Notes: generated from the sequence alone by a model not told the origin. A stretch of DNA of 41,471 nt from Dehalococcoidia bacterium (GCA_034430455.1 DAOUEO010000140.1:1-41471), one strand, 5' to 3'. Positions 3,804-31,420 are shown, counted from the first letter of the stretch. Program-made: numbers and translations.

Positions 3804-5254
3804 TAGCGACGATGGCGACCAAGAGAAAGGCGGCAAGAAGAGCGATCCCCCACCGGGTCCACCTCGTGGGGATCGGCGGCGTGCACATGTCCGCCATCGC
3901 CCACATCCTCATGACCTGGGGGCACCAGGTGAGCGGCTCTGACCTGCGCCTGTCGCCCTTTACTGAGCGGCTGACGGAGCAGGGAGCCACGGTCTACGAA
4001 GGACACGCCGCCGCAAACGTGCACGACGCCGAGCTGGTGGTCACAACCTCAGCGGCGACCAGGGACAACCCCGAACTCAGCGAGGCGCAGCGGCGCGGCA
4101 TCCCCGTCATCAAGCGGGCGGAGATGGTCGCGCGGCTGATGGAGGGTCGCTACTCAGTTGCCATCGCCGGCACTCACGGTAAGACGACGACCAGCGCCCT
4201 CATCTCTTTCTTGCTTGCCGAGGCCGGGCTCTCACCAACGTTCCTCGTCGGCGGCGACATAGCGAACCTGGGCACGAACGCCGCCGCCGGTGAGGGACGG
4301 CATATCGTAGTGGAGGCGGACGAGTTCGACGCCGCCTTCCTCAGCTATGAGCCCGACCTCGCCGTCGTCACCAACATCGAGCCGGACCATCTCGACTTCT
4401 ACGGCTCGTTCGACGAGCTGAAGGCGGCCTTCGCCCGGTTCCTGATGTCGGTGCCGCCGCAGGGCCTCGTCATCGCCTGCGCCGACAACCCCACCGTCTG
4501 TGACCTCCTCGGCCGCGGTACGGGGGAGCCGATCCCTCTCCAGACGACGCAGGTGGAGCTCTACGGGCTGGATACTCCGGTGGACTGGGTCGTCAGCCAC
4601 CTGGGCCGGCTGCCGGGCGGCGAGCAGGAGTTCCTTGTAGGTCTGCACGGCCGCCCCTACGGCGAGTTTCACCTTGGCCTGCCGGGACGGCACAACGTGA
4701 GCAACGCCCTCGCCGCTATCGCCGTCGGCCATCACGTCGGCGTGCCGCTGCGGACGATGCAGAAGGCGGTGGCAGCGTTCCGGGGCACCGGCCGGCGCTT
4801 CGAGCTGGTGGGAGAGGCGGCCGGGGTAACGGTGATGGACGACTACGCGCACCATCCCACGGAGGTAGCGGCCACCATCGCCGCCGCCCGCGAGCGCTTC
4901 GCCGGACGCCGCCTGATCGCGGTGTTCCAGCCCCACACGTACAGCCGCACGCTCTATCTCCGGGAGGGGTTCCGCACCTGCTTCGAGGGGCTGGACGCGC
5001 TGCTCATCGCCGATACCTACGCTGCCCGCGAGACGTACGCCGACGGGATGAGCGCGGAGGCGCTGGCCAAGGAGGTCACGCGGCCGCGGGCGCGGTTCGT
5101 CCCCACCTTCGCGGCGGCGGCAGAGGAGGCGCTGCGGATGCTCAAGCCCGGCGACGTCTTGTTCACCATCGGCGCTGGGGATGTCAACGAGGTAGGGCCG
5201 CTGGTCCTGGATGGCCTCCAGAAGAGGGACAAGGGGCACAGCGATGGCGACTGA
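3800..5254 (+). CDS. murC: UDP-N-acetylmuramate--L-alanine ligase
   Basis: The track ORF 3365..5254 has an Arg/Pro-rich 5' part lying inside murG. The conserved sequence begins at ATG 3800 (MIATMATKRK..VHLVGIGGVHMSAIAHIL), which overlaps the murG stop as ATGA. Mur-ligase P-loop GTHGKTTT and DDYAHHP motif are present. Confidence 0.9.
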   Translation: MIATMATKRKAARRAIPHRVHLVGIGGVHMSAIAHILMTWGHQVSGSDLRLSPFTERLTEQGATVYEGHAAANVHDAELVVTTSAATRDNPELSEAQRRGIPVIKRAEMVARLMEGRYSVAIAGTHGKTTTSALISFLLAEAGLSPTFLVGGDIANLGTNAAAGEGRHIVVEADEFDAAFLSYEPDLAVVTNIEPDHLDFYGSFDELKAAFARFLMSVPPQGLVIACADNPTVCDLLGRGTGEPIPLQTTQVELYGLDTPVDWVVSHLGRLPGGEQEFLVGLHGRPYGEFHLGLPGRHNVSNALAAIAVGHHVGVPLRTMQKAVAAFRGTGRRFELVGEAAGVTVMDDYAHHPTEVAATIAAARERFAGRRLIAVFQPHTYSRTLYLREGFRTCFEGLDALLIADTYAARETYADGMSAEALAKEVTRPRARFVPTFAAAAEEALRMLKPGDVLFTIGAGDVNEVGPLVLDGLQKRDKGHSDGD

Positions 5255-7260: not shown

Positions 7261-8014
7261 CTACCGGCAGCGCTGGCAGAGCGACCCATCCCCCGCTCGT
7301 GTGGGCGGGTGGCGGCGGGCGCTTCGCCGCTTCCTGCTGCCAGCGCTGGCGATCATCGGGCTGGCGGCGGGTGGCTGGCTGCTGCTCCGCTCGCCGCTGC
7401 TGCAGGTCCAGGAGGTGAAGGTCGTGGGGGCGGAGAGGCTCGACGCGGCGACCCTGGCCGCCGCCTCCGGCCTGGAGGGGCAGAACATCCTCTTCGCCGA
7501 CACGGGGAAGGCGAAGGAGCGTCTCTCCCAGGTGGCGCTGATCAAGGACTTATCGATAGAGCGGCGGTGGCCGGGGAAGATGGTAATAAAGGTCAAGGAG
7601 CGTCAGCCATGGGGCTACTGGCAGGTTAAGGATGACGTCTACGTCATCGACGATGAGGGATTCGTCCTCGATAACGACCAGCCGGACGAGGGCGCTCCTA
7701 CGATCGTGCAGCTGGACAGCGAGCGGCGGTGGCTCCCCGGCGAGCGGGTGGAGGTCCACGCCGTCGATCTGGCGCGGCAGCTCATCGAGTCGGCGCCGCG
7801 CTCCCTGGGCCGGGCGGTCGTCGGGCTGGAGTACAGCGACCGCAGCGGCCTGACGGTTGTCCTGGAGGGCGACCTGCGGGCCACCTTCGGCGACGACCGC
7901 GACCTCGACTACAAGGTCAGCGTCCTCTACGTGCTCCTGGAGAAGGCGCAGCGGGAGGGACGAGAAGTTCACGCCGTGGACCTCCGGTTCGGGGACAGCG
8001 TGTCATTCCAGTAA
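7247..8014 (+). CDS. ftsQ: Cell division protein FtsQ/DivIB (POTRA domain)
   Basis: Basic N-terminus, one TM helix (LLPALAIIGLAAGGWLLL), then a POTRA-like VQEVKVVGAERLD segment. TTG start overlaps the ddl end. It sits between ddl and ftsA. Confidence 0.75.
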   Translation: MRRRSYRQRWQSDPSPARVGGWRRALRRFLLPALAIIGLAAGGWLLLRSPLLQVQEVKVVGAERLDAATLAAASGLEGQNILFADTGKAKERLSQVALIKDLSIERRWPGKMVIKVKERQPWGYWQVKDDVYVIDDEGFVLDNDQPDEGAPTIVQLDSERRWLPGERVEVHAVDLARQLIESAPRSLGRAVVGLEYSDRSGLTVVLEGDLRATFGDDRDLDYKVSVLYVLLEKAQREGREVHAVDLRFGDSVSFQ

Positions 8015-8069
8015 AAGGGAGCTTTCGGAAGGCCAAGCGAGCCGGCGACCCAGGAAGGAGGAACCCAAG

Positions 8070-9314
8070 GTGGTGAAGAGCGGCACTTTCGCCTCCATTG
8101 ACGTGGGGACGACTAAGGTATGCACCGTGGTCGGTGAGGTCACCGACGACGCCGCCCTGCGGATCCTCGGCGTCGGGGTGTCCCCCGCCCGAGGCTTCAG
8201 CCGCGGGATGGTGGACAACATCCGCGACGCGACGATGTCGGTGCGCGACTCGGTTGAGAAGGCGGAGCGTTCGAGCGGGACGCGCATCCTCTCCGCCCAC
8301 GTGGGGATCGCGGGGTCGCACATCCAGTCCCTGAACAGCCGCGGCATAGCGGCGATCCCCGACCGGCAGCATCCCATCTCCGCCGACGACATCGAGCGGG
8401 TGATCGAGGGGGCACGCGTCATCAACCTCCCCTCCAACCGCGAGGTGCTGCACGCCGTGCCCCGCTGCTACGTCGTGGATGGGCAGGACAGCGTAAGCGA
8501 CCCGCTGGGGATGCACGGACAGCGGCTGGATGTGGAAACTCACATCGTTACGGCGTCGGTCAGCGCGATGCAGAACCTGACGAAGTGCGTGGAGGGGGCG
8601 ATGGTGGAGGTGGAAAGCATCATTTTGGAGCCGCTGGCCAGCGCGGAGGCCGTCCTGGAAGAGGAGGAGATGAAGCAGGGAGTGGTGGTGGCCGACATCG
8701 GCGGCGGGACGACGGGGCTGGCGGTATACCTGGAGGGGAGCGCGTTCCATACCTGCGTGCTGCCGGTGGGGGGGAATCATCTGACCCGCGACCTGGTGGT
8801 GGGGCTGCGCTGCCCCTATCAGGTCGCCGAAGAGGCGAAGGAGAGGTACGGCCACGCCATCCCCAGTCTGGTGGACGCCGACGAATCGGTGGATCTGGAC
8901 TGCTTCGGTTCGGAGCGGCAGAAATCGGTGCCCCGCCGCCGGCTGTGCGAGATCCTGCAGGCGCGCTGCGAGGAGATCGTGGAGATGGTGATCAGCGAGG
9001 CCAAGCGCTCCGTCCACGACGACATCCTGTCGGCCGGGATCGTCCTCACCGGCGGGACGGCCAACCTGCAGGGGCTCGATCTCCTGGCGGAGCAGGTGAG
9101 CGGGCTGCCGGTACGGGTGGGCCTGCCGCAACACCTGCAGGGGCTCTCGGAGACGCTGGCCGACCCGGCCTACGCCACCAGCGTGGGCCTGCTCCAGTGG
9201 GCCCTGAGGGAGAACAAGCTGCTCCTGGGGAGCCAGCGCGCGGGGCCCAGCGTCGCCGTGGGCGGCTGGCTCCGCCGTGTCGGTCACTTCATGAGAGTTC
9301 TCATGCCTGAATAA
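8070..9314 (+). CDS. ftsA: Cell division protein FtsA (actin-like ATPase)
   Basis: The conserved sequence starts VVKSGTFASIDVGTTKVCTVVGE at GTG 8070, with GGAGG 10-15 nt upstream. A second phosphate motif VADIGGGTT is present. The track ORF's 5' extension (7857-8069) overlaps ftsQ and is not FtsA-like. Confidence 0.85.
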   Translation: MVKSGTFASIDVGTTKVCTVVGEVTDDAALRILGVGVSPARGFSRGMVDNIRDATMSVRDSVEKAERSSGTRILSAHVGIAGSHIQSLNSRGIAAIPDRQHPISADDIERVIEGARVINLPSNREVLHAVPRCYVVDGQDSVSDPLGMHGQRLDVETHIVTASVSAMQNLTKCVEGAMVEVESIILEPLASAEAVLEEEEMKQGVVVADIGGGTTGLAVYLEGSAFHTCVLPVGGNHLTRDLVVGLRCPYQVAEEAKERYGHAIPSLVDADESVDLDCFGSERQKSVPRRRLCEILQARCEEIVEMVISEAKRSVHDDILSAGIVLTGGTANLQGLDLLAEQVSGLPVRVGLPQHLQGLSETLADPAYATSVGLLQWALRENKLLLGSQRAGPSVAVGGWLRRVGHFMRVLMPE

Positions 9315-9370: not shown

Positions 9371-10441
9371 ATGGTGACGGCTAGAGAAGACTTGGACAGC
9401 CTTCCCCCCATCAAGGTGGTGGGGGTGGGTGGCGGCGGCTGCAACGCCGTCAGCCGGATGATGGCGGAGAGGGTCCGCGGCGTGCAACTAGTGGCGGTCA
9501 ACACCGACGCGCAGGCCCTCGCCCATACGGACGCCCACGTGCGGATCCGCATCGGCGACAGGCTGACGAAGGGACTGGGGGTGGGCGGCGACCCCGGGAA
9601 GGGGCTGCGCGCCGCTGAGGAGAGCCGGGAGGAGCTGTTCGACGCCGTGAAGGGGGCGGAGATGGTGTTCGTGACCGCCGGCATGGGCGGAGGCACCGGC
9701 ACCGGCGCCTCCTCGATCGTGGGGGAGGTGGCCCGCGAGGCGGGCGCCCTGGCGATCGGTATCGTCACCAAGCCCTTCGCCTTTGAGGGCGCGAAGCGGC
9801 GCTTCCAGGCAGAGGAAGGGATCGGCCACCTGCAGAGCAAGGTGGACACCCTCATCGTCATCCCCAACGACCGCCTCCTCGCCGTGTGCAGTCCCGAGGT
9901 TACGGTCAGCGAGGCGTTCCGCGCGGGCGATGAGGTGCTGCGGCAGTCGATCCAGGGGATATCGGAGGTCATCACCGTCCCCGGCGACATCAACCTCGAC
10001 TTCGCCGACGTGCGCAAGATCATGGGCGAGGCGGGCCCGGCCCTGCTCGCCATCGGCCGCGCCAGCGGCGAGAACCGGGCGGCGGAAGCGGCGCGGGCGG
10101 CGATCAGCAGCCCCCTCCTCGACACGAGCATCGAGGGGGCGACGGGGGTGCTGTTCAACGTCACGGGTTCCCGCAGCGTGGGGCTGCACGAGCTGAACCT
10201 GGCGGCGCAGGTGATCGCCGAGGTGGTAGACCCCGACGCCGAGATCATCTTCGGGACGGCGACGGACCCCGACCTGGGGGACGAGATAAAGGTGACGGTC
10301 ATCGCCACCGGCTTCACCCCCGCCGAGAGTCAGACGCTGGAGCGGGACCAGCGGATAAGGCAGATCCGGGTGCAGGCGATGCAGAACGTCGCCGACACCG
10401 ACCTACCGACCTTTCTCCGCCGCACGGTTTCCCTGCGGTGA
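9371..10441 (+). CDS. ftsZ: Cell division GTPase FtsZ
   Basis: Carries the tubulin signature GGGTGTGA plus [14 protein letters not shown] and [15 protein letters not shown] is the RBS directly upstream of ATG 9371. Confidence 0.95.
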
Positions 10442-10716: not shown

Positions 10717-10763
10717 CCACAATATATGGGTATTTGCCCCTTGACAAGCACAATATGTTGTAG
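10717..10763 (+). promoter_or_regulatory. Two tandem NrdR boxes
   Basis: ccaCaAtATaTgGgta (10717-10732) and gcaCaAtATgTtGtag (10748-10763) match 11/16 and 12/16 positions of the NrdR-box palindrome acaCwAtATaTwGtgt. Their spacing is 31 bp, as for known tandem NrdR sites. They form AT-rich islands in GC-rich DNA. Confidence 0.6.
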
Positions 10764-10769
10764 CATACT
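10741..10769 (+). promoter_or_regulatory. Candidate sigma-70-type promoter of the nrdR-nrdJ operon
   Basis: TTGACA (10741-10746), a 17-bp spacer that is almost entirely NrdR box 2, then CATACT (10764-10769). A second gccccTTGACA copy lies at 10686-10696. Confidence 0.4.
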
Positions 10770-10817: not shown

Positions 10818-11477
10818 ATGCGCTGTCCTTACTGCGGCTTTGAAGACTCGAAGGTGATCGACTCGCGGGACGCCGAGGACGGCGTCCGCCGCCGCCGCGA
10901 GTGCATCTCCTGCGGCGAGCGCTTCACCACCTACGAGCGCGCCCAGGTGACCGGTCTGCTGGTGGTTAAGAAGGACGGCCGCCGCGAGGAGTTCACCCGC
11001 GAGAAGCTGCTGCTGGGGATACGCAAGGCCTGCGAGAAGCGCCCCCTAGCGGTGGGCACGCTGGAGGCGGCGGTGGACAGCATCGAGGCGGCGCTCCACG
11101 AGCAGGGGCTGGCCGAGGTATCGAGCCGGCAGATCGGCGAGATGGCGATGGAGCAGATCCAGGAGCTGGACCACATAGCCTACATCCGTTTCGCCAGCGT
11201 CTACCGCGAGTTCGCCGATCTGGAGGCTCTCAAGGACGAAGTCGAGGCGTTGGAGGAGGCCCGGTCAGGGGCGGGCGCGGGCCAGCAGCCGTCCCTGATA
11301 CCGGAGGATGAGATGGGGAGTCTGGCCCGACCGGCCGCGTGGCGTCCTTTCCGGCAGAGGGGGACCCGCCAGCGGCAGTCTACAGGCAGAGGGGGGCCGT
11401 CTCATCGTCTGTCGTTGAGGCGAAAGGAATCACCTCTTCGTCAGCCTGATGGGGCGGCCCAGGAAAACCTTACCTAG
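10818..11477 (+). CDS. nrdR: Transcriptional repressor NrdR (zinc ribbon + ATP-cone) with a long basic C-terminal tail
   Basis: MRCPYCGFEDSKVIDSRDAEDGVRRRRECISCGERFTTYE is the canonical NrdR zinc ribbon, followed by an ATP-cone (VVKKDGRREEFTREKLL...IAYIRFASVYREF). ATG 10818 gives the canonical N-terminus; the track start is GTG 10797. Confidence 0.9.
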   Translation: MRCPYCGFEDSKVIDSRDAEDGVRRRRECISCGERFTTYERAQVTGLLVVKKDGRREEFTREKLLLGIRKACEKRPLAVGTLEAAVDSIEAALHEQGLAEVSSRQIGEMAMEQIQELDHIAYIRFASVYREFADLEALKDEVEALEEARSGAGAGQQPSLIPEDEMGSLARPAAWRPFRQRGTRQRQSTGRGGPSHRLSLRRKESPLRQPDGAAQENLT

Positions 11478-11507
11478 AACGGGGCACGGCCTGGAAAGGG
11501 GGGTGCA

Positions 11508-11798
11508 TTGTCCAATCAGTGCAGAGTGGTCAACAGCGAGGGAGAGACGGTGGCCACGGGCACCTACGAGATCAACGAGGAGCGCCAACAGGTCACGCTG
11601 CGGCCCCTCCTCGACACCGGCCTGATCGACAAGGAGATGGCCCCCCTCTTTCTGGAGATGGACGACGGCAGGACACTGGAGCTGAGCAGCAGGTTCATGA
11701 AGTTCCGTCTCTACGGGACGGACGGCGAGCGAGAGTCGATCTACCGGCTGCGTTACCAGGCGCGACAGGAGGCGCGGGGCTCACTCACCCCCCGATAA
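11508..11798 (+). CDS. Hypothetical 96-aa protein, no family recognised
   Basis: TTG start preceded by GAAAGGGGGG. There is a strong third-position GC bias in this frame. It sits between nrdR and nrdJ on the same strand. No motif recognised. Confidence 0.55.
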   Translation: MSNQCRVVNSEGETVATGTYEINEERQQVTLRPLLDTGLIDKEMAPLFLEMDDGRTLELSSRFMKFRLYGTDGERESIYRLRYQARQEARGSLTPR

Positions 11799-11936
11799 CA
11801 GGGAATCACACAGCGACGCCGCTGGGGCCTCCCGGCGGTGTCCTCTCTCCGGGGCAGCGGTTGCCGGCTGGACTCGCGGCCCTGACGGCGGCTCTGGGGA
11901 GACAAAGGAACCGTGGGGAGGAAAGGACATGACACG

Positions 11937-14657
<2,721 letters not shown>

Positions 14658-14711
14658 TAGGGTGTGTTCGCCGTCGGCCAAATCCTCACCCGCCACCAGC
14701 AGGTCGACGGC

Positions 14712-14786
14712 GGCTCCGAGAAGTGGCGTCCTCGCCCCTCGAGGGCGCCACTTCATGCATAGCGCGTATGAGGCTCCTCGAAGTGG
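14712..14786 (+). promoter_or_regulatory. Structured intergenic RNA element with mutually exclusive pairings (function unknown)
   Basis: 15-bp hairpin 14720-14754 (gaagtggcgUcctcg / cgaggGcgccacttc, 5-nt loop). The 3' arm ccacttc (14748-14754) can instead pair with a second gaagtgg at 14780-14786. Segments GGCTCCgaGAAGTGG (14712-14726) and GGCTCCtcGAAGTGG (14772-14786) are direct repeats. Confidence 0.4.
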
Positions 14787-14832
14787 TAGACTGTTCGGAG
14801 GGACTTGCGGTAGGAGACCTGACGGATAGGGG

Positions 14833-17241
14833 ATGAAGTCCGGGGGTGCCGCTATGACAGCAAGGCGGGGGACAGCCAAGCCGATCGCCCTATCGGATAA
14901 CGCGCGGGTGGTGCTGGAACGGCGCTACCTGGCCAAGGACAGGCGCGGTCGCGTCGTCGAGACGCCGGAGCAACTCTTCCGGCGGGTGGCCCGCGCCGTC
15001 GCCCAGGCGGAGACGGAGCACGGCGCCAAGCCAGCGGAGACGGCGGCGTGGGAGAAACGCTTCTACGAACTGATGACCGGCCTCCGCTTCCTCCCCAACT
15101 CGCCTACCCTGGGGAACGCCGGCCGCCCCCTGCAGCAGCTCGCCGCCTGCTTCGTCCTGCCGGTGAACGACTCGATGGGGGAGATCTTCGGCGCCGTCCG
15201 CGACATGGCCGTGATCCACAAGAGCGGCGGCGGGACAGGCTTCTCGTTCAGCCGCCTGCGCCCTGCCGGGGACCAGGTGCGGAGCACGGCCGGATTGGCG
15301 AGCGGTCCGGTCTCTTTCCTCAAGGTGTTCGACGCGGCGACGGAGGCGATCAAGCAGGGCGGGAGACGGCGTGGCGCCAACATGGCGATCCTCGCCGTCG
15401 ACCACCCCGACATCGAGGGGTTCATCGGCGCCAAGGCGGACATGGTATCCCTCACCAACTTCAACATCTCGGTGGCGGCAAACGAGCGCTTCATGGCGGC
15501 GGTGGAGGGGGACGAGGAGTACGCGCTGCTGAACCCCCGCACGCGGCGGCCGGTGGGACGGCGGCGGGCGCGGGAGGTGTTCCGCCTGATCGTGGAGAAC
15601 GCCTGGCAAAACGGCGACCCCGGCCTCGTCTTCATCGACCGCGTGAACAGGGACAACCCCACACCCCACCTGGGCGCGATCGAGGCGACGAACCCCTGCG
15701 GCGAGCAGCCGCTCCTGCCCTACGAGTCGTGCAACCTGGGCTCGCTGAACCTGTCGCGGTTCGTGAAGGAGGGCGCGGCGCCAGCGCGACGGAAGACGAA
15801 GGAGACGGCGGCGAAGGCTGTCGACTGGGAAGGTCTGGCGTCGGCGATCCCCGTCTGCGTGCGCTTCCTGGACAACGTCATCGACGTTAACCGATACCCG
15901 ATCCCTCAGATCGAGGAGATGACGAAGAGGACGCGCAAGATCGGGCTGGGGGTGATGGGCTGGGCCGACCTCCTGTTCCAGCTCGGCATCCCCTACAACT
16001 CCGAGGAGGCGCTGCGTCTGGGCGAGCGCATGATGGCGTTCATCCAGGAGAAGGCCGATGAGGCGTCGGAGCGGCTGGCGGATGAGCGCGGCGTCTTCCC
16101 CGCCTGGGAGGGCAGCGTCTACGCCGCGAAGGGCCGCGGCCAGCGGCGGCTGCGCAACTCGACCCGCACGACGGTGGCGCCGACGGGGACGCTGTCGATA
16201 ATCGCCGACTGCTCGGGCGGGACCGAGCCGGTCTTCGCCCTGGCGTTCACCCGGCAGCACTATCTCGACCCCAAGCGGCCGCAGACGGTCACCCGGCTCA
16301 GGGAGGTCAACAAGCGCTTCGAGCGGGCGGCTAGAGAGGGCGGTTTCCACTCCCAGGAGTTGCTCGACGCGCTGGCGGCCGGCGGCAGCCTTCAGGATCA
16401 GGCGGCGGCGCCGGAGTGGGCGAAGAGGCTCTTCGTGACGGCGCACGACGTGTCGCCGGAGTGGCACGTGCGCATGCAGGCGGCGTTCCAGCGGCACACC
16501 GATAACGCCGTGAGCAAGACGATCAACTTCCCCCACGACGCCACGCCCGAAGACGTGGAGAAGGCGTACCTGCTGGCCTACCACGAGGGGTGCAAGGGGA
16601 TCACGATCTACCGCGACCTGTCACGGGAGATGCAGGTGCTCTCCCACGCCACCGTCCGCGGCCCCGAGCAGGCGGAGGCGGTCGCCGCCGAGCGGGCGCT
16701 GGGGCCCCCGGCGCCGGCGCGGCGACCGGGCGAGCCCTACCGGCGGCGTCTGCCCGACGAGAGGGAGTCGATCACACACAAGTTCCGGGTGGGCGACCAG
16801 GAGGGCTACGTAACGGTGGGTCTGTACGAGGACGGGAACCCGGGCGAGGTGTTCGTAACCATCTCGAAGGAGGGGTCGACGATACGGGGGCTGATGGACT
16901 CGGTGGCGGTGCTGACGTCGCTGGCGCTGCAGTACGGCGTCCCTGTCGACGACCTGGCGCGGAAGTTCAGCGGCGTCCGCTTCGAGCCGCACGGCTTCAC
17001 GAACGACCCGGACCTGCCGCAGGCGACGTCGATCGTCGACTACATATTCCGCTGGCTCTCGGAGAGGTTCGGCGCGGAGGCGAGGGCGCGGCCGCGGCGG
17101 CGACGGCGGCCCCACAAGGTCAGCCTGCCTTCGAAGGGGGACATCAGCACGGGGGTAGCGTGTCCGGAGTGCGGGTCGGTGATGGTGTTCGCGGAGGGGT
17201 GCCTGTTGTGCCGGTCGTGTGGGTATGAGAAGTGCGGCTAG
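14833..17241 (+). CDS. nrdJ: Class II (adenosylcobalamin-dependent) ribonucleotide reductase, second paralog
   Basis: Has LSDNARVVLERRYL at the N-terminus, LAACFVLPVND, NPCGEQPLLPYESCNLGSLNL and DNAVSKTINFP. The C-terminal block is RRLPDERESITHKFRVGDQEGYVTVGLYEDGNPGEVF, and the tail is CPECG...CLLCRSCG. The start could be ATG 14833 or ATG 14854. Confidence 0.9.
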   Translation: MKSGGAAMTARRGTAKPIALSDNARVVLERRYLAKDRRGRVVETPEQLFRRVARAVAQAETEHGAKPAETAAWEKRFYELMTGLRFLPNSPTLGNAGRPLQQLAACFVLPVNDSMGEIFGAVRDMAVIHKSGGGTGFSFSRLRPAGDQVRSTAGLASGPVSFLKVFDAATEAIKQGGRRRGANMAILAVDHPDIEGFIGAKADMVSLTNFNISVAANERFMAAVEGDEEYALLNPRTRRPVGRRRAREVFRLIVENAWQNGDPGLVFIDRVNRDNPTPHLGAIEATNPCGEQPLLPYESCNLGSLNLSRFVKEGAAPARRKTKETAAKAVDWEGLASAIPVCVRFLDNVIDVNRYPIPQIEEMTKRTRKIGLGVMGWADLLFQLGIPYNSEEALRLGERMMAFIQEKADEASERLADERGVFPAWEGSVYAAKGRGQRRLRNSTRTTVAPTGTLSIIADCSGGTEPVFALAFTRQHYLDPKRPQTVTRLREVNKRFERAAREGGFHSQELLDALAAGGSLQDQAAAPEWAKRLFVTAHDVSPEWHVRMQAAFQRHTDNAVSKTINFPHDATPEDVEKAYLLAYHEGCKGITIYRDLSREMQVLSHATVRGPEQAEAVAAERALGPPAPARRPGEPYRRRLPDERESITHKFRVGDQEGYVTVGLYEDGNPGEVFVTISKEGSTIRGLMDSVAVLTSLALQYGVPVDDLARKFSGVRFEPHGFTNDPDLPQATSIVDYIFRWLSERFGAEARARPRRRRRPHKVSLPSKGDISTGVACPECGSVMVFAEGCLLCRSCGYEKCG

Positions 17242-17407: not shown

Positions 17408-17491
17408 CTGCACTCCCTCCTCTTGAGGGTAGAGTTGATGACCGGTAGGATAGGATCACGTCCAAGTCGCGTTGACACAGGCCAAGAAACG

Positions 17492-18226
17492 ATGACCCCG
17501 GAAACGAACCGAACGACTTCAGCAGCCGACATCGCCGAGAATCTGCGCCGCGTGCGCGAGCGCATCGACGCCGCCTGCCACCGCGCCGGCCGCTCGCCCG
17601 ACGGGGTGACGATCATCGGCGTCAGCAAGGGCTTCCCCGTCGAGGCGGTCGTCGCCGCATACGAAGCTGGGCTCGTCGACATCGGGGAGAACCGGGTGCA
17701 GGAGGCGGCAGGGAAGGTCCCGGCAGCAGCAGCGCAGGGGGCGCGACCGCGCTGGCATCTGGTCGGCCATCTCCAGACGAATAAGGTAAAGACAGCTCTG
17801 GGGCTGTTTGGTATAATCCACAGCGTCGATTCGCTGCGCCTGGCGGAGGTGATCAGCAGGGGGGCGGGGGCGCGCGCGCCCGTGCCCGTCCTGCTGGAGG
17901 TGAACGTAGCGGGCGAGGAATCGAAGTACGGGCTCAAGCCGGACGAGGTCGCGTCGGCGCTGGCACGGGCGCGCGCGCTGCCAGACGTCGATGTGCAGGG
18001 CCTGATGACGGTCGCCCCTCTAGCAGCAGACATCGAGGAGGTGCGACCGGTCTTCCGGCGGCTTAGGGAGCTGGGCGAGTCGCTGGGGCTGCGGCACCTC
18101 TCGATGGGGATGAGCGACGACTTCGAGGTGGCGGTGGAGGAAGGGGCGACGCTGGTGCGCATCGGACGGGCGATCTTCGGGCCACGGCCCGACCCTTTCC
18201 AGGCGCCGCGGCCGGCAACCCAGTGA
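17492..18226 (+). CDS. yggS: YggS/PLPBP-family pyridoxal-phosphate homeostasis protein
   Basis: Contains TIIGVSKGFPVEAVVAAYEAGLVDIGENRVQE, WHLVGHLQTNKVK, and a SMGMSDDFEVAVEEGATLVRIG C-terminus. ATG 17492 gives the usual length; the track start is 17423. Confidence 0.85.
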   Translation: MTPETNRTTSAADIAENLRRVRERIDAACHRAGRSPDGVTIIGVSKGFPVEAVVAAYEAGLVDIGENRVQEAAGKVPAAAAQGARPRWHLVGHLQTNKVKTALGLFGIIHSVDSLRLAEVISRGAGARAPVPVLLEVNVAGEESKYGLKPDEVASALARARALPDVDVQGLMTVAPLAADIEEVRPVFRRLRELGESLGLRHLSMGMSDDFEVAVEEGATLVRIGRAIFGPRPDPFQAPRPATQ

Positions 18227-29422: not shown

Positions 29423-29499
29423 TGGCGCGCTCGGCGGGATTCGAACCCACGGCCTCAGCCTCCGCAGGGCTGCGCTCTATCCGACTGAGCTACGAGCGC
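29423..29499 (-). tRNA. tRNA-Arg, anticodon GCG as read
   Basis: The reverse complement folds as GCGCTCG-TA-GCTC-AGTCGGATA-GAGC-G-CAGCC-CTGCGGA-GGCTG-AGGCC-GTGGG-TTCGAAT-CCCGC-CGAGCGC-G-CCA. The cloverleaf is complete, CCA is encoded and A20 is present. Confidence 0.85.
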
Positions 29500-29580
29500 G
29501 CGCTATCCACACATAAGACTGGGGATGAGACGCGGGGTGCGGGGTCCGGCGCGCCATCCCCCGTCCGGGGTCATCCTGGT

Positions 29581-29666
29581 TGGTGCCGAAGGTGGGATTT
29601 GAACCCACACGCCCTTACGGACACTACGCCCTGAACGTAGCGCGTCTGCCATTCCGCCACTTCGGC
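29581..29666 (-). tRNA. tRNA-Leu (CAG)
   Basis: Reverse complement GCCGAAG-TG-GCGGAATGGCAGACGC-...CTACG-TTCAGGG-CGTAG, a long variable arm, TGTGGG-TTCAAAT-CCCAC, CTTCGGC-A-CCA. Confidence 0.9.
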
Positions 29667-29700
29667 GAACCGCGACCGTTTGCAGGCTCAAGCGCAAGGA

Positions 29701-29777
29701 TGGTGGGCGGTACAGGGCTCGAACCTGTGACCTCTTCCGTGTGAAGGAAGCGCTCATACCAACTGAGCTAACCGCCC
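29701..29777 (-). tRNA. tRNA-Val (CAC)
   Basis: Reverse complement GGGCGGT-TA-GCTC-AGTTGGTAT-GAGC-G-CTTCC-TTCACAC-GGAAG-AGGTC-ACAGG-TTCGAGC-CCTGT-ACCGCCC-A-CCA. Confidence 0.9.
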
Positions 29778-29887
29778 AGAGCTCAAGCTGCCGGCCACGA
29801 TGATTGTAGCCATCGGCGCCAGGGCCTGTCAAGGAAAGACGGACGGGCAGCGTCTACCGCGGGGCTGCGAGGGGGTTGCCTGATGTC

Positions 29888-31129
29888 CTAGGGATGCGGT
29901 GCGCTGACGCCGATGGAGGCGAATCCACCGGCCTGCTCCTGGTACTGCCGCCACCTTGCCTCCAGCGCCGGGTGCTGCAGCGTCTCCATCAGGTAGTCGG
30001 TGAAGGCGTCTCCCGTGGCGCCGGAAGAGCGGCCGGTGATGACGAGCCTCTTCTCGAACGTGTCGCATATCTCAAGGGCCATCTCCAGCCGGCGGCCGCG
30101 GTCGGCGAAGCCGATGTGGTTGAGGAGCATGGCGCCGCCGCGGACGAGCCCGCTGGGGTCAGCGTACTGGACGCGGCCCTCTTCGACCATACGAGGGGCG
30201 CTGCCGTGGATCGCCTCGAACATGGCGTAGCGCTTGCCGATGTTGGCGCTGCCGGCGGTGCCGACACCGCCCTGGAGCTCGGCCGCCTCGTCGGTGAGGA
30301 TGTCGCCGTAGAGGTTGGGCAGGGCGAAGACGCGGAAGTGCGTCCTCCGCTTGGGGTCGACGAGCTTCGCAGGCACGATGTCGATGTACCAGTCGTCCCA
30401 CTCCACTTCCGGGTAGTCGGCGGCGACCTCGCGGGCGACCTCCAGGAATCTGCCGTCGGTGGTCTTGATCACGTTGGCCTTGGTGACCACCGTCACCCGG
30501 TTGATACCGTGATTGCGCGCGTAATCGAAGGCGAGGCGGATGAGCCGCTCGCTGCCCTGGAGGGTAGCGATGGTGAAGTCGACGCAGAGGTCGGGGGTGA
30601 CGTGGATCCCCCTGCTGCCGACGGCGTAGGCGCCCTCGGTGTTCTCGCGGAAGAAGGTCCAGTCGATCCCCTGGGCGGGGATGCGCACGGGCCGGACGTT
30701 GGCGAAGAGGTCGAGGGCCTTGCGCATAGCGACGTTGGCGCTCTCGATGTTGGGCCAGGGGTCGCCGGCGCGCGGCGTCGTAGTGGGGCCCTTGAGGATG
30801 ATATGGCACTGCTTCAGCTCTTCGAGGACATCGTCGGGGACCGCCTTGAGCTGGGCGGCGCGGTTCTCGATTGTCAGCCCCTCGATGACCTTGAAGACGA
30901 CCTTGCCGCTCTCCACCTCCGGCTTCAGGAGAAGCTCCAGCACCCTCTGGGTCTGCTCCGAGATGTAGGGCCCAATGCCGTCGCCGCCGCAGACGCCGAT
31001 GACGATGGGTTTCAGGCCGGCGTAGTCGATCCAGCCGTCATTCGCCTTCATCCTCTCGACGCGCTCGAGCTGCTCTGTGAGCAGGTCGCCGAAGTGCTCT
31101 TTGGCCCTTTCGATTGCCTCGTTGTCCAT
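29888..31129 (-). CDS. icd: Isocitrate/isopropylmalate dehydrogenase-family enzyme, most like isocitrate dehydrogenase
   Basis: GGDGIGP, ILKGPTTTP....IESANVAMRKALDLFANVRPVR (parallel to E. coli IDH IKGPLTTP...IRSLNVALRQELDLY.CLRPVR, including the Ser), NLYGDILTDEAA, and EAIHGSAP. GGAAGGA RBS. Confidence 0.75.
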   Translation of the reverse strand: MDNEAIERAKEHFGDLLTEQLERVERMKANDGWIDYAGLKPIVIGVCGGDGIGPYISEQTQRVLELLLKPEVESGKVVFKVIEGLTIENRAAQLKAVPDDVLEELKQCHIILKGPTTTPRAGDPWPNIESANVAMRKALDLFANVRPVRIPAQGIDWTFFRENTEGAYAVGSRGIHVTPDLCVDFTIATLQGSERLIRLAFDYARNHGINRVTVVTKANVIKTTDGRFLEVAREVAADYPEVEWDDWYIDIVPAKLVDPKRRTHFRVFALPNLYGDILTDEAAELQGGVGTAGSANIGKRYAMFEAIHGSAPRMVEEGRVQYADPSGLVRGGAMLLNHIGFADRGRRLEMALEICDTFEKRLVITGRSSGATGDAFTDYLMETLQHPALEARWRQYQEQAGGFASIGVSAPHP

Positions 31130-31345
31130 GGGTTTTTCCTTCCGGGGGACGGGGTTTCTGGAAGCGCAGGCGGGCGTAGCTGATACCGCAGTATATCAGG
31201 GCCAAGATAAAGAAAGCAACGGCTTTCACAAAGCGCAGTGTTAAGACCGCGTTAAGTGATCAGCTCTCAGCGAGTGAGGTCAAGCGAGAAACGACCCTCG
31301 CCCTCTTGGGGAGCGGGGCCGTCGCGAAGAGTTGCTCTCCTAGAT

Positions 31346-31420
31346 TGGTGGCAGCGGAGGGATTTGAACCCACGACCAAGGGCTTATGAGTCCCCTGCTC
31401 TACCACTGAGCTACGCTGCC
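31346..31420 (-). tRNA. tRNA with CAU anticodon (elongator Met or lysidine-type Ile2; identity not resolved)
   Basis: Reverse complement GGCAGCG-TA-GCTC-AGTGGTA-GAGC-A-GGGGA-CTCATAA-GCCCT-TGGTC-GTGGG-TTCAAAT-CCCTC-CGCTGCC-A-CCA. There is one A-G mismatch at the base of the anticodon stem and one U-U mismatch in the T stem. Confidence 0.75.

Follow-up and report, generated by a model that had tools for sequence, protein, structure and literature searches.

Two class II ribonucleotide reductases of separate subfamilies, adjacent and probably under separate control, in a lineage of Dehalococcoidia

Contig DAOUEO010000140.1 of a Dehalococcoidia bacterium (GCA_034430455.1), analysed over its full length of 41,471 nucleotides (positions 1-41471, here called the window), carries two class II ribonucleotide reductase (RNR) genes in tandem, nrdJ1 and nrdJ2, with the products J1 and J2. 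We consider it probable that these are two generalist reductases of ribonucleoside diphosphates (NDPs) which belong to separate subfamilies, are under separate control and represent the sole supply of deoxyribonucleotides. As far as can be read from the sequences, the difference between the two copies seems to concern the way in which they are turned on and not the reaction that they carry out. Within an assembly of 1.6 Mb that is 85% complete, the window is contig C140, and the nearest relatives of the source genome are metagenome-assembled genomes of Dehalococcoidia (Chloroflexota). Families, genomes and loci of relatives carry our working labels f, G and L.

The one published answer to why some organisms have two RNRs of the same class, a difference in phosphate specificity, is not applicable here. 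This makes the lineage a clear example of the NDP-only minority of such pairs: two generalists of different subfamilies, no other RNR, a long-fixed synteny and regulatory signals that visibly differ. As there is no departure from known RNR biochemistry, the gain is modest.

Two intact reductases from separate subfamilies

Gene nrdJ1 (11913..14657, + strand) codes for a class II, adenosylcobalamin (AdoCbl)-dependent RNR of the NrdJd or actinobacterial type (PRK06556), and nrdJ2 (14833..17241, + strand) for a class II, AdoCbl-dependent RNR of the PRK08665 or Thermotoga-like type. The nrdJ1 product has 914 aa when counted from the GTG start; the ATG at 11937, which stands behind a GGAGG, is probably the better choice. 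For nrdJ2, 802 aa are obtained when counting from 14833, and the ATG at 14854, a start shared with relatives, is probably the one that is used. The spacer between the two genes has 175-196 nt. An initial annotation of this DNA had described a tandem pair of class II RNRs between ftsZ and yggS. Both genes are indeed complete and are arranged head to tail on the + strand, and yggS follows nrdJ2. At the other end, nrdR and a 96-aa open reading frame (ORF), orf96, precede nrdJ1, so that ftsZ is two genes away from the first reductase. Position 10818, which had been taken as the beginning of the pair, is the start of nrdR (TIGR00244) and not that of a reductase.

J1 consists of a PF08471 N-terminal domain, the RNR barrel and a TSCPD-type C-terminal domain, while J2 has an lgN domain, the barrel and a TSCPD domain. 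The barrel model PF02867 matches residues 166-704 of J1 (466.8 bits) and residues 104-593 of J2 (429.3 bits). Curated NCBIfam cut-offs for NrdJ are exceeded by both proteins: J1 scores 1406.9 bits against NF005122 (cut-off 859) and 588 against TIGR02504 (cut-off 400), and J2 scores 1038.6 bits against NF006417 (cut-off 961) and 718.7 against TIGR02504. The strong difference between the N-terminal halves, noticed in the initial annotation, is seen as PF08471 in one protein and lgN in the other, and the two belong to separate NrdJ subfamilies.

The two proteins share only 33% identity. Enzymes of Binatia, Acidobacteriota, Myxococcota and others share 58-65% identity with J1, and those from many phyla share 47-53% with J2. 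In a joint tree of 185 sequences, the J1 and J2 types are split with 100% support. A phylogeny had been proposed as a check for recent duplication, which is not borne out: it is ruled out by the low identity, the different NCBIfam equivalogs and the clean split of the tree. Since they fall into different subfamilies, J1 and J2 are not recent duplicates and are, by these sequence comparisons, old paralogues from two anciently separated NrdJ subfamilies.

All motifs that had been quoted earlier (active-site cysteines and glutamate, finger loop, cysteine tail and C-terminal block) are found in the sequence. J1 has CFIL at residues 168-171, NPCSEY at 372-377, ESACNL at 382-387, the RRLPD...THKF block at 730-743 and a six-cysteine tail at 888-913. 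The set in J2 comprises LSDNARVVLERRYL, CFVL (106-109), NPCGEQ (287-292), ESCNL (298-302), RRLPD...THKF (638-651) and a six-cysteine tail (777-801). Both proteins have the finger-loop N-x-C-x-E, which is the site of the thiyl-radical cysteine, and the two redox-active cysteines of the active site. In an alignment to relatives from the PDB, the finger-loop and C-N motifs of J1 and J2 line up with the residues of 7B9P and of the Thermotoga maritima enzyme.

Conservation of individual residues was judged on the sequences of 98 J1-type and 87 J2-type relatives. For J1, residues C168, N372, C374, E376 and C385 are invariant, and the six tail cysteines are kept in 93-97 of the relatives. For J2, residues N287, C289, E291 and C300 are invariant, and C106 and the six tail cysteines are identical wherever they are aligned (85-86 of 87, the remainder being gaps). 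The six conserved C-terminal cysteines of J1 are those expected in NrdJd-type enzymes for the zinc site and the redox pair. They are spaced C-x2-C-x9-C-x2-C-x2-C-x5-C, and J2 shows the same pattern with x4 at the end.

The ratio of nonsynonymous to synonymous substitution rates (dN/dS) was computed against five relatives. Values of 0.17-0.26 for nrdJ1 and of 0.14-0.26 for nrdJ2 were obtained, a range which matches that of ftsZ, yggS and proC (nrdR: 0.13-0.37), and both nrdJ genes are under purifying selection. That one of them is a pseudogene or a dead paralogue is ruled out by residue conservation together with these ratios, in agreement with the earlier impression that neither is a pseudogene. 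Both genes appear functional by all available tests on sequence, and the locus is predicted to encode two independent, functional, AdoCbl-dependent ribonucleoside-diphosphate reductases.

In the same-genus relative G001 (L101, G001:C7, about 4370-4408), nrdJ2 has a frameshift in a variable insert that follows SRFVKEG. The portion downstream of the frameshift still has a dN/dS of 0.14; an error of assembly may explain the frameshift, or else the gene may have been inactivated very recently. In two complete genomes from family f2 (L099 in G029 and L100 in G038), the match of nrdJ2 covers residues 14-605 and resumes only for the final 27-58 residues. These copies seem to be without the RRLPD...THKF part of the cysteine-rich domain and to have kept the cysteine tail.

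Both enzymes are predicted to reduce diphosphates

The apical phosphate loop sets the specificity of NrdJ, with P-N-S-P (or F-N-S-P) in reductases of NDPs and P-A-G-R in reductases of ribonucleoside triphosphates (NTPs), as shown by Schell et al. (2021, J Biol Chem 297:101008, PMC8365446). The loop of J1 is F149-N-S-P152 and that of J2 is P88-N-S-P91, the NDP type in both cases. F-N-S-P is invariant in the 98 J1-type sequences, and P-N-S-P is found in each of the 86 J2-type sequences aligned at this site (one gap). The G-R pair of the NTP reducers occurs in neither J1 nor J2. Because the loop is of the NDP type in both, both are predicted to be NDP reducers, and the leading idea of the initial annotation, a specialisation in the phosphorylation state of the substrate, is left unsupported. 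In the figures from the GTDB survey in the same source, more than one NrdJ was found in 1108 of 24,059 species genomes, of which 760 have both types, 235 only the NDP type and 113 only the NTP type (PMC8365446). By these figures, to call such a pair unusual was too strong, and the source genome would fall among the 235 NDP-only genomes.

Allosteric specialisation had also been considered. A domain search finds an ATP cone in neither J1 nor J2, and loop 2 is canonical for the respective subfamily in each: KSGGKTRRAAK in J1, with 10 of 11 positions invariant in the relatives, and KQGG(T/R)RRGAN in J2, which is the same with or without a J1 partner. PTLGNA, which replaces PTLMNA beside the phosphate loop of J2, is the sole mark specific to the own order. 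The type of reductant tail is common to J1 and J2. No sign of a substrate split is seen, as each type also stands alone in related genomes. Each enzyme would thus be a generalist, with an NDP-type phosphate loop, a canonical loop 2 and a zinc-finger redox tail of its own, which would be re-reduced by a thioredoxin-like donor.

No other reductase found and a predicted complete dependence on AdoCbl

A profile search of the source assembly with the RNR barrel model finds only these two genes, and the corresponding searches find no R2 subunit and no NrdD. Among 41 relatives (genomes of the genus, family and order), class III NrdD is found in none and the class I small subunit R2 in a single one. 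A corrinoid adenosyltransferase is present in all 21 relatives tested, being of the CobA type in 19 and of the PduO type in the other two. J1 and J2 are thus predicted to be the only route of the cell to deoxyribonucleotides. As the only RNRs, they would make DNA synthesis in this lineage wholly dependent on AdoCbl, and this bears on the ecology of these Dehalococcoidia as consumers of cobamides.

Control signals and the structured spacer

Only two matches to the NrdR box occur in the window, CCACAATATATGGGTA at 10717 and GCACAATATGTTGTAG at 10748 (10717..10763, + strand). They are 31 bp apart and overlap the only sigma-70-like promoter of the region (10741-10769, + strand, TTGACA-17-CATACT), and they are the only paired matches in the whole assembly. 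The promoter of nrdR-orf96-nrdJ1 thus has the tandem arrangement, with a distance of about 31 bp, that is expected for an NrdR-controlled transcription unit. An equivalent pair is found upstream of nrdR in related loci that carry nrdJ1, with a single box in L098 and L190. The interval 14658-14853 contains no NrdR box, and none of the related loci scanned has one upstream of nrdJ2, even where this gene is kilobases distant, beyond genes of the opposite strand, or is located on a different contig. The unit nrdR-orf96-nrdJ1 would be transcribed from the promoter overlapped by the two boxes and, given these boxes, would be expected to follow the ATP/dATP state that NrdR senses.

The spacer in front of nrdJ2 contains a conserved element of two hairpins (14669..14754, + strand), as seen by RNA folding and in the family alignment. 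Stem 1 (14669-14712), which has 8-11 bp in the family, encloses an invariant CCCGCCACCAG loop (14689-14699). The second hairpin (14720-14754) is perfect and has 15 bp here. Among the 20 pairs predicted from 11 spacers, 7 show compensatory changes. After the strong hairpin, the family alignment of the spacers shows TG(A/G)TA(A/G)ACT, represented here by TGGTAGACT (14784..14792, + strand), an extended -10-like motif (TGnTAnACT) and candidate promoter of nrdJ2. The motif precedes nrdJ2 in nine of the ten tandem loci fetched from the own order and also in L017, including loci with inserts between nrdJ1 and nrdJ2, and TGnTAnACT occurs only 7 times in the 1.6-Mb assembly. Since a conserved terminator-like hairpin and a -10-like motif precede it, nrdJ2 is probably expressed largely alone. 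We infer a division of labour in which nrdJ1 would provide a regulated supply and nrdJ2 a basal one.

The hairpins and the motif may represent a terminator plus a promoter or, alternatively, a regulatory RNA of a new kind. No cobalamin riboswitch and no other Rfam family is found in or around the operon including the spacer (gathering threshold or E <= 1). The two-hairpin element is unique in the genome. The loop was considered as a dispersed repeat and rejected, as the 15 other genomic copies of the 11-mer have flanks that are unlike the spacer element. That the element (14669-14754) is a new cis-regulatory RNA which sets the transcription or translation reaching nrdJ2 is improbable in our view; if it were so, the spacer RNA could act by attenuation, with AdoCbl, a nucleotide or a protein as the signal, and one RNR would be under the protein repressor NrdR while the other is under an RNA switch. 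The structured spacer is the part of the locus that is likeliest to hold something new.

Distribution and history of the pair

A J1-type gene is present in all 41 genomes of the order, nearly all of which have a second, J2-like match. The block ftsA-ftsZ-nrdR-orf96-nrdJ1-nrdJ2-yggS-proC is intact in the family and shows variations in the order, which answers the call for a survey of related genomes made in the initial annotation. The same tandem order occurs in genomes of relatives that consist of a single contig (G009, G011), and the tandem is therefore not a binning artefact. Of 201 genomes sampled from the class, 174 carry the J2 type and 31 the J1 type. The layout ftsA-ftsZ-nrdR-nrdJ2 without nrdJ1, in many cases with yggS-proC next to it, is shared by many Dehalococcoidia. 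Gene nrdJ1 sits between nrdR and nrdJ2 in families f53, f60 and f62 as well as in the own order. Family f4 has nrdJ2 on another contig, without nrdR, and family f26 has the J1 type without the J2 type. Four genomes of the Tepidiforma clade, two of them named Tepidiformaceae, have nrdR-nrdJ2 and no further barrel gene, from which it follows that J2 alone suffices.

The J1 sequences from Chloroflexota form one clade (23 rows, 99% support) with a branching that tracks the families. In the J2 tree, the lineages that carry J1 are in one clade with Tepidiformaceae. The nrdJ1/nrdJ2 pair has been co-inherited over several families of Dehalococcoidia. We infer that nrdJ2, the type that most Dehalococcoidia have, was the first of the two in the ftsAZ-nrdR-nrdJ2-yggS-proC neighbourhood, and that nrdJ1 and later orf96 would have been added into an existing nrdR-nrdJ2 unit in an ancestor of the clade. 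On the simplest reading, nrdJ1 would then have co-diverged with nrdJ2 and have been lost in Tepidiformaceae.

In other lineages, nrdJ1 and nrdJ2 are separated by unrelated genes, some of which have the opposite orientation, and co-transcription of the two is thus not required. The nrdJ1-nrdJ2 junction is an insertion hotspot, with 0.7-4.5 kb of ORFs which vary between lineages and several of which are on the opposite strand (L019/L190, L029, L188, L189, L096, L099, L103). No consistent accessory gene was seen in these inserts, for which no search against family libraries was made.

Alternative explanations

Several points weigh against two generalist NDP reductases under separate control as the sole supply. 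Because the gap is under 200 nt in the family, transcription from the nrdR promoter could quite well read through into nrdJ2 and control it. The spacer hairpin is without a U-tract, and a strict scan for the sigma-70 consensus calls no promoter in the spacer. The NDP prediction is that of a two-residue motif, for which the experimental validation consists of motif grafting in a single triphosphate reductase and of assays on a few natural enzymes. The source assembly is only 85% complete, and the gain of nrdJ1 as opposed to its loss elsewhere is a matter of parsimony over unresolved polytomies in FastTree trees. The short gap, the shared strand and the lack of a U-tract and of a consensus promoter also speak for a single NrdR-controlled and co-expressed operon nrdR-orf96-nrdJ1-nrdJ2, as do the single-NrdJ genomes in which nrdJ2 directly follows nrdR. 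The pair would then be kept for biochemical differences in kinetics, temperature or oxygen tolerance, cobamide form or reductant partner, with which the different N-terminal domains, the x5 versus x4 spacing of the last tail cysteine and the PTLGNA variant common to the J2 copies of the own order would agree. However, nrdJ2 is intact, selected and without an NrdR box where it has been split off by opposite-strand genes or lies on another contig, one transcription unit seems to end and another to begin at the conserved hairpins and the -10-like motif, and the conserved functional loops give no indication of a biochemical difference. We regard this explanation as rather unlikely, and the single operon assumed in the initial annotation as doubtful, since NrdR boxes occur only before nrdR and nrdJ2 stands behind a conserved hairpin spacer with a -10-like motif of its own.

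The other explanations fare less well. A split in which one copy reduces NDPs and the other NTPs would have precedent, as the copies differ in predicted phosphate specificity in 69% of the multi-NrdJ genomes counted in the survey (PMC8365446). It is ruled out by the published loop motif as far as the sequence is concerned, given the diphosphate motif in both copies and the G-R pair in neither, and we consider such a split very unlikely. Long adjacency and co-inheritance of the genes could instead reflect a single enzyme, in the form of an obligate or preferred J1-J2 heterodimer or of one tail re-reducing the other enzyme. This can be given hardly any credence when J2 is alone in Tepidiformaceae, the J1 type occurs without the J2 type in family f26, the genes are unlinked in family f4, each copy has a complete tail of its own and identity is that low. 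Finally, the nrdJ2 frameshift in the nearest relative, G001, might be taken to indicate that one copy is decaying or has turned non-catalytic. But the catalytic residues are all intact in the window and are kept by nearly all of the relatives examined, both genes have a dN/dS of about 0.14-0.26, and the frameshift is in a variable insert, is followed by a 3' part that is still constrained and is possibly an assembly error; decay is the least probable of the explanations and extremely unlikely. Two generalists with separate control thus remain our preferred reading.

Neighbouring genes

The gene order on the + strand is ftsQ-ftsA-ftsZ-nrdR-orf96-nrdJ1-spacer-nrdJ2-yggS-proC-yggT-recA, with ftsA at 7857-9314, ftsZ at 9371-10441 and yggS, directly after nrdJ2, at 17423-18226. 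The nrdR gene (10818..11477, + strand) codes for the repressor of RNR genes, with a zinc ribbon and an ATP cone (TIGR00244, 184.6 bits with a cut-off of 124.65; PF22811 and PF03477). At its C-terminus, NrdR carries a basic extension that is about 70 residues long (window 11260-11477). It can be aligned from end to end with the same-genus genome (87% identity) and with G004 (69%); the match to more distant relatives is confined to residues 1 to about 145-200.

The 96-aa ORF between nrdR and nrdJ1, orf96 (11508..11798, + strand), is restricted to the lineage. It has no match in Pfam or NCBIfam and only 10 homologues among 5.8 billion proteins, and those few that have source names are hypothetical proteins. 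It is found at the same site in families f1, f2 and f4 and is absent from the J1-bearing families f53, f60 and f62. Among closer relatives its dN/dS is 0.19-0.47. Elsewhere in the window, at 29426-31420, there are four tRNA genes on the minus strand.

Comparison with known systems

In Streptomyces, the nrdRJ operon, attributed to Borovok, Grinberg and colleagues, reportedly consists of NrdR followed by an NrdJd enzyme and is said to be autoregulated via two NrdR boxes. The likeness to the locus described here is in nrdR being the first gene, in the tandem NrdR boxes on its promoter and in a downstream class II RNR of the NrdJd type with a cysteine-rich tail. The Dehalococcoidia locus differs in having an additional 96-aa ORF, a second NrdJ of another subfamily behind a structured spacer, and no class I alternative.

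For the tail of NrdJd from Stackebrandtia nassauensis, Cys-920/923/933/936/939/945 have been described as zinc site and redox pair (Loderer et al. 2017, PMC5704485). The spacing of the six cysteines is identical in J1, which also shares the S-P pair of the phosphate loop, and the last spacing of J2 is off by one residue. The best solved relative of J1 is a B12-dependent RNR with a chain of 925 aa (PDB 7B9P/7B9Q, 626 bits). It has the N-terminal domain, an FNSP-like loop, the SGG-TRRAAK loop 2 and the NPCSEY finger loop in common with J1, but has roughly 70 and 50 extra residues at two sites where J1 is shorter. For J2, the best solved relative is NrdJ from T. maritima (PDB 1XJE, 1XJN, 3O0O; 413 bits for 1XJE), a dimeric NDP reducer, and the two share P-N-S-P, NPCGE, the CN motif and the KQG-RRRGA loop 2. 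Unlike the crystallised T. maritima chains of 644 aa, J2 carries the full cysteine-rich C-terminal domain, and it also differs in the variable insert of about 15 residues after SRFVKEG.

The presence of several NrdJ in one genome has already been documented in the survey by Schell et al. (PMC8365446), and the source genome resembles the multi-NrdJ genomes reported there in having more than one class II RNR with a loop motif that can be read from the sequence, all copies being of the NDP type. In the portions of the survey consulted, gene order, regulation and lineage are not described, whereas the pair presented here is syntenic across families, is located in the nrdR/ftsZ neighbourhood and comprises the sole RNRs. 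What the present analysis contributes is the conserved synteny, the probable order of events, the predicted complete dependence on B12 and a probable regulatory division of labour between the two reductases.

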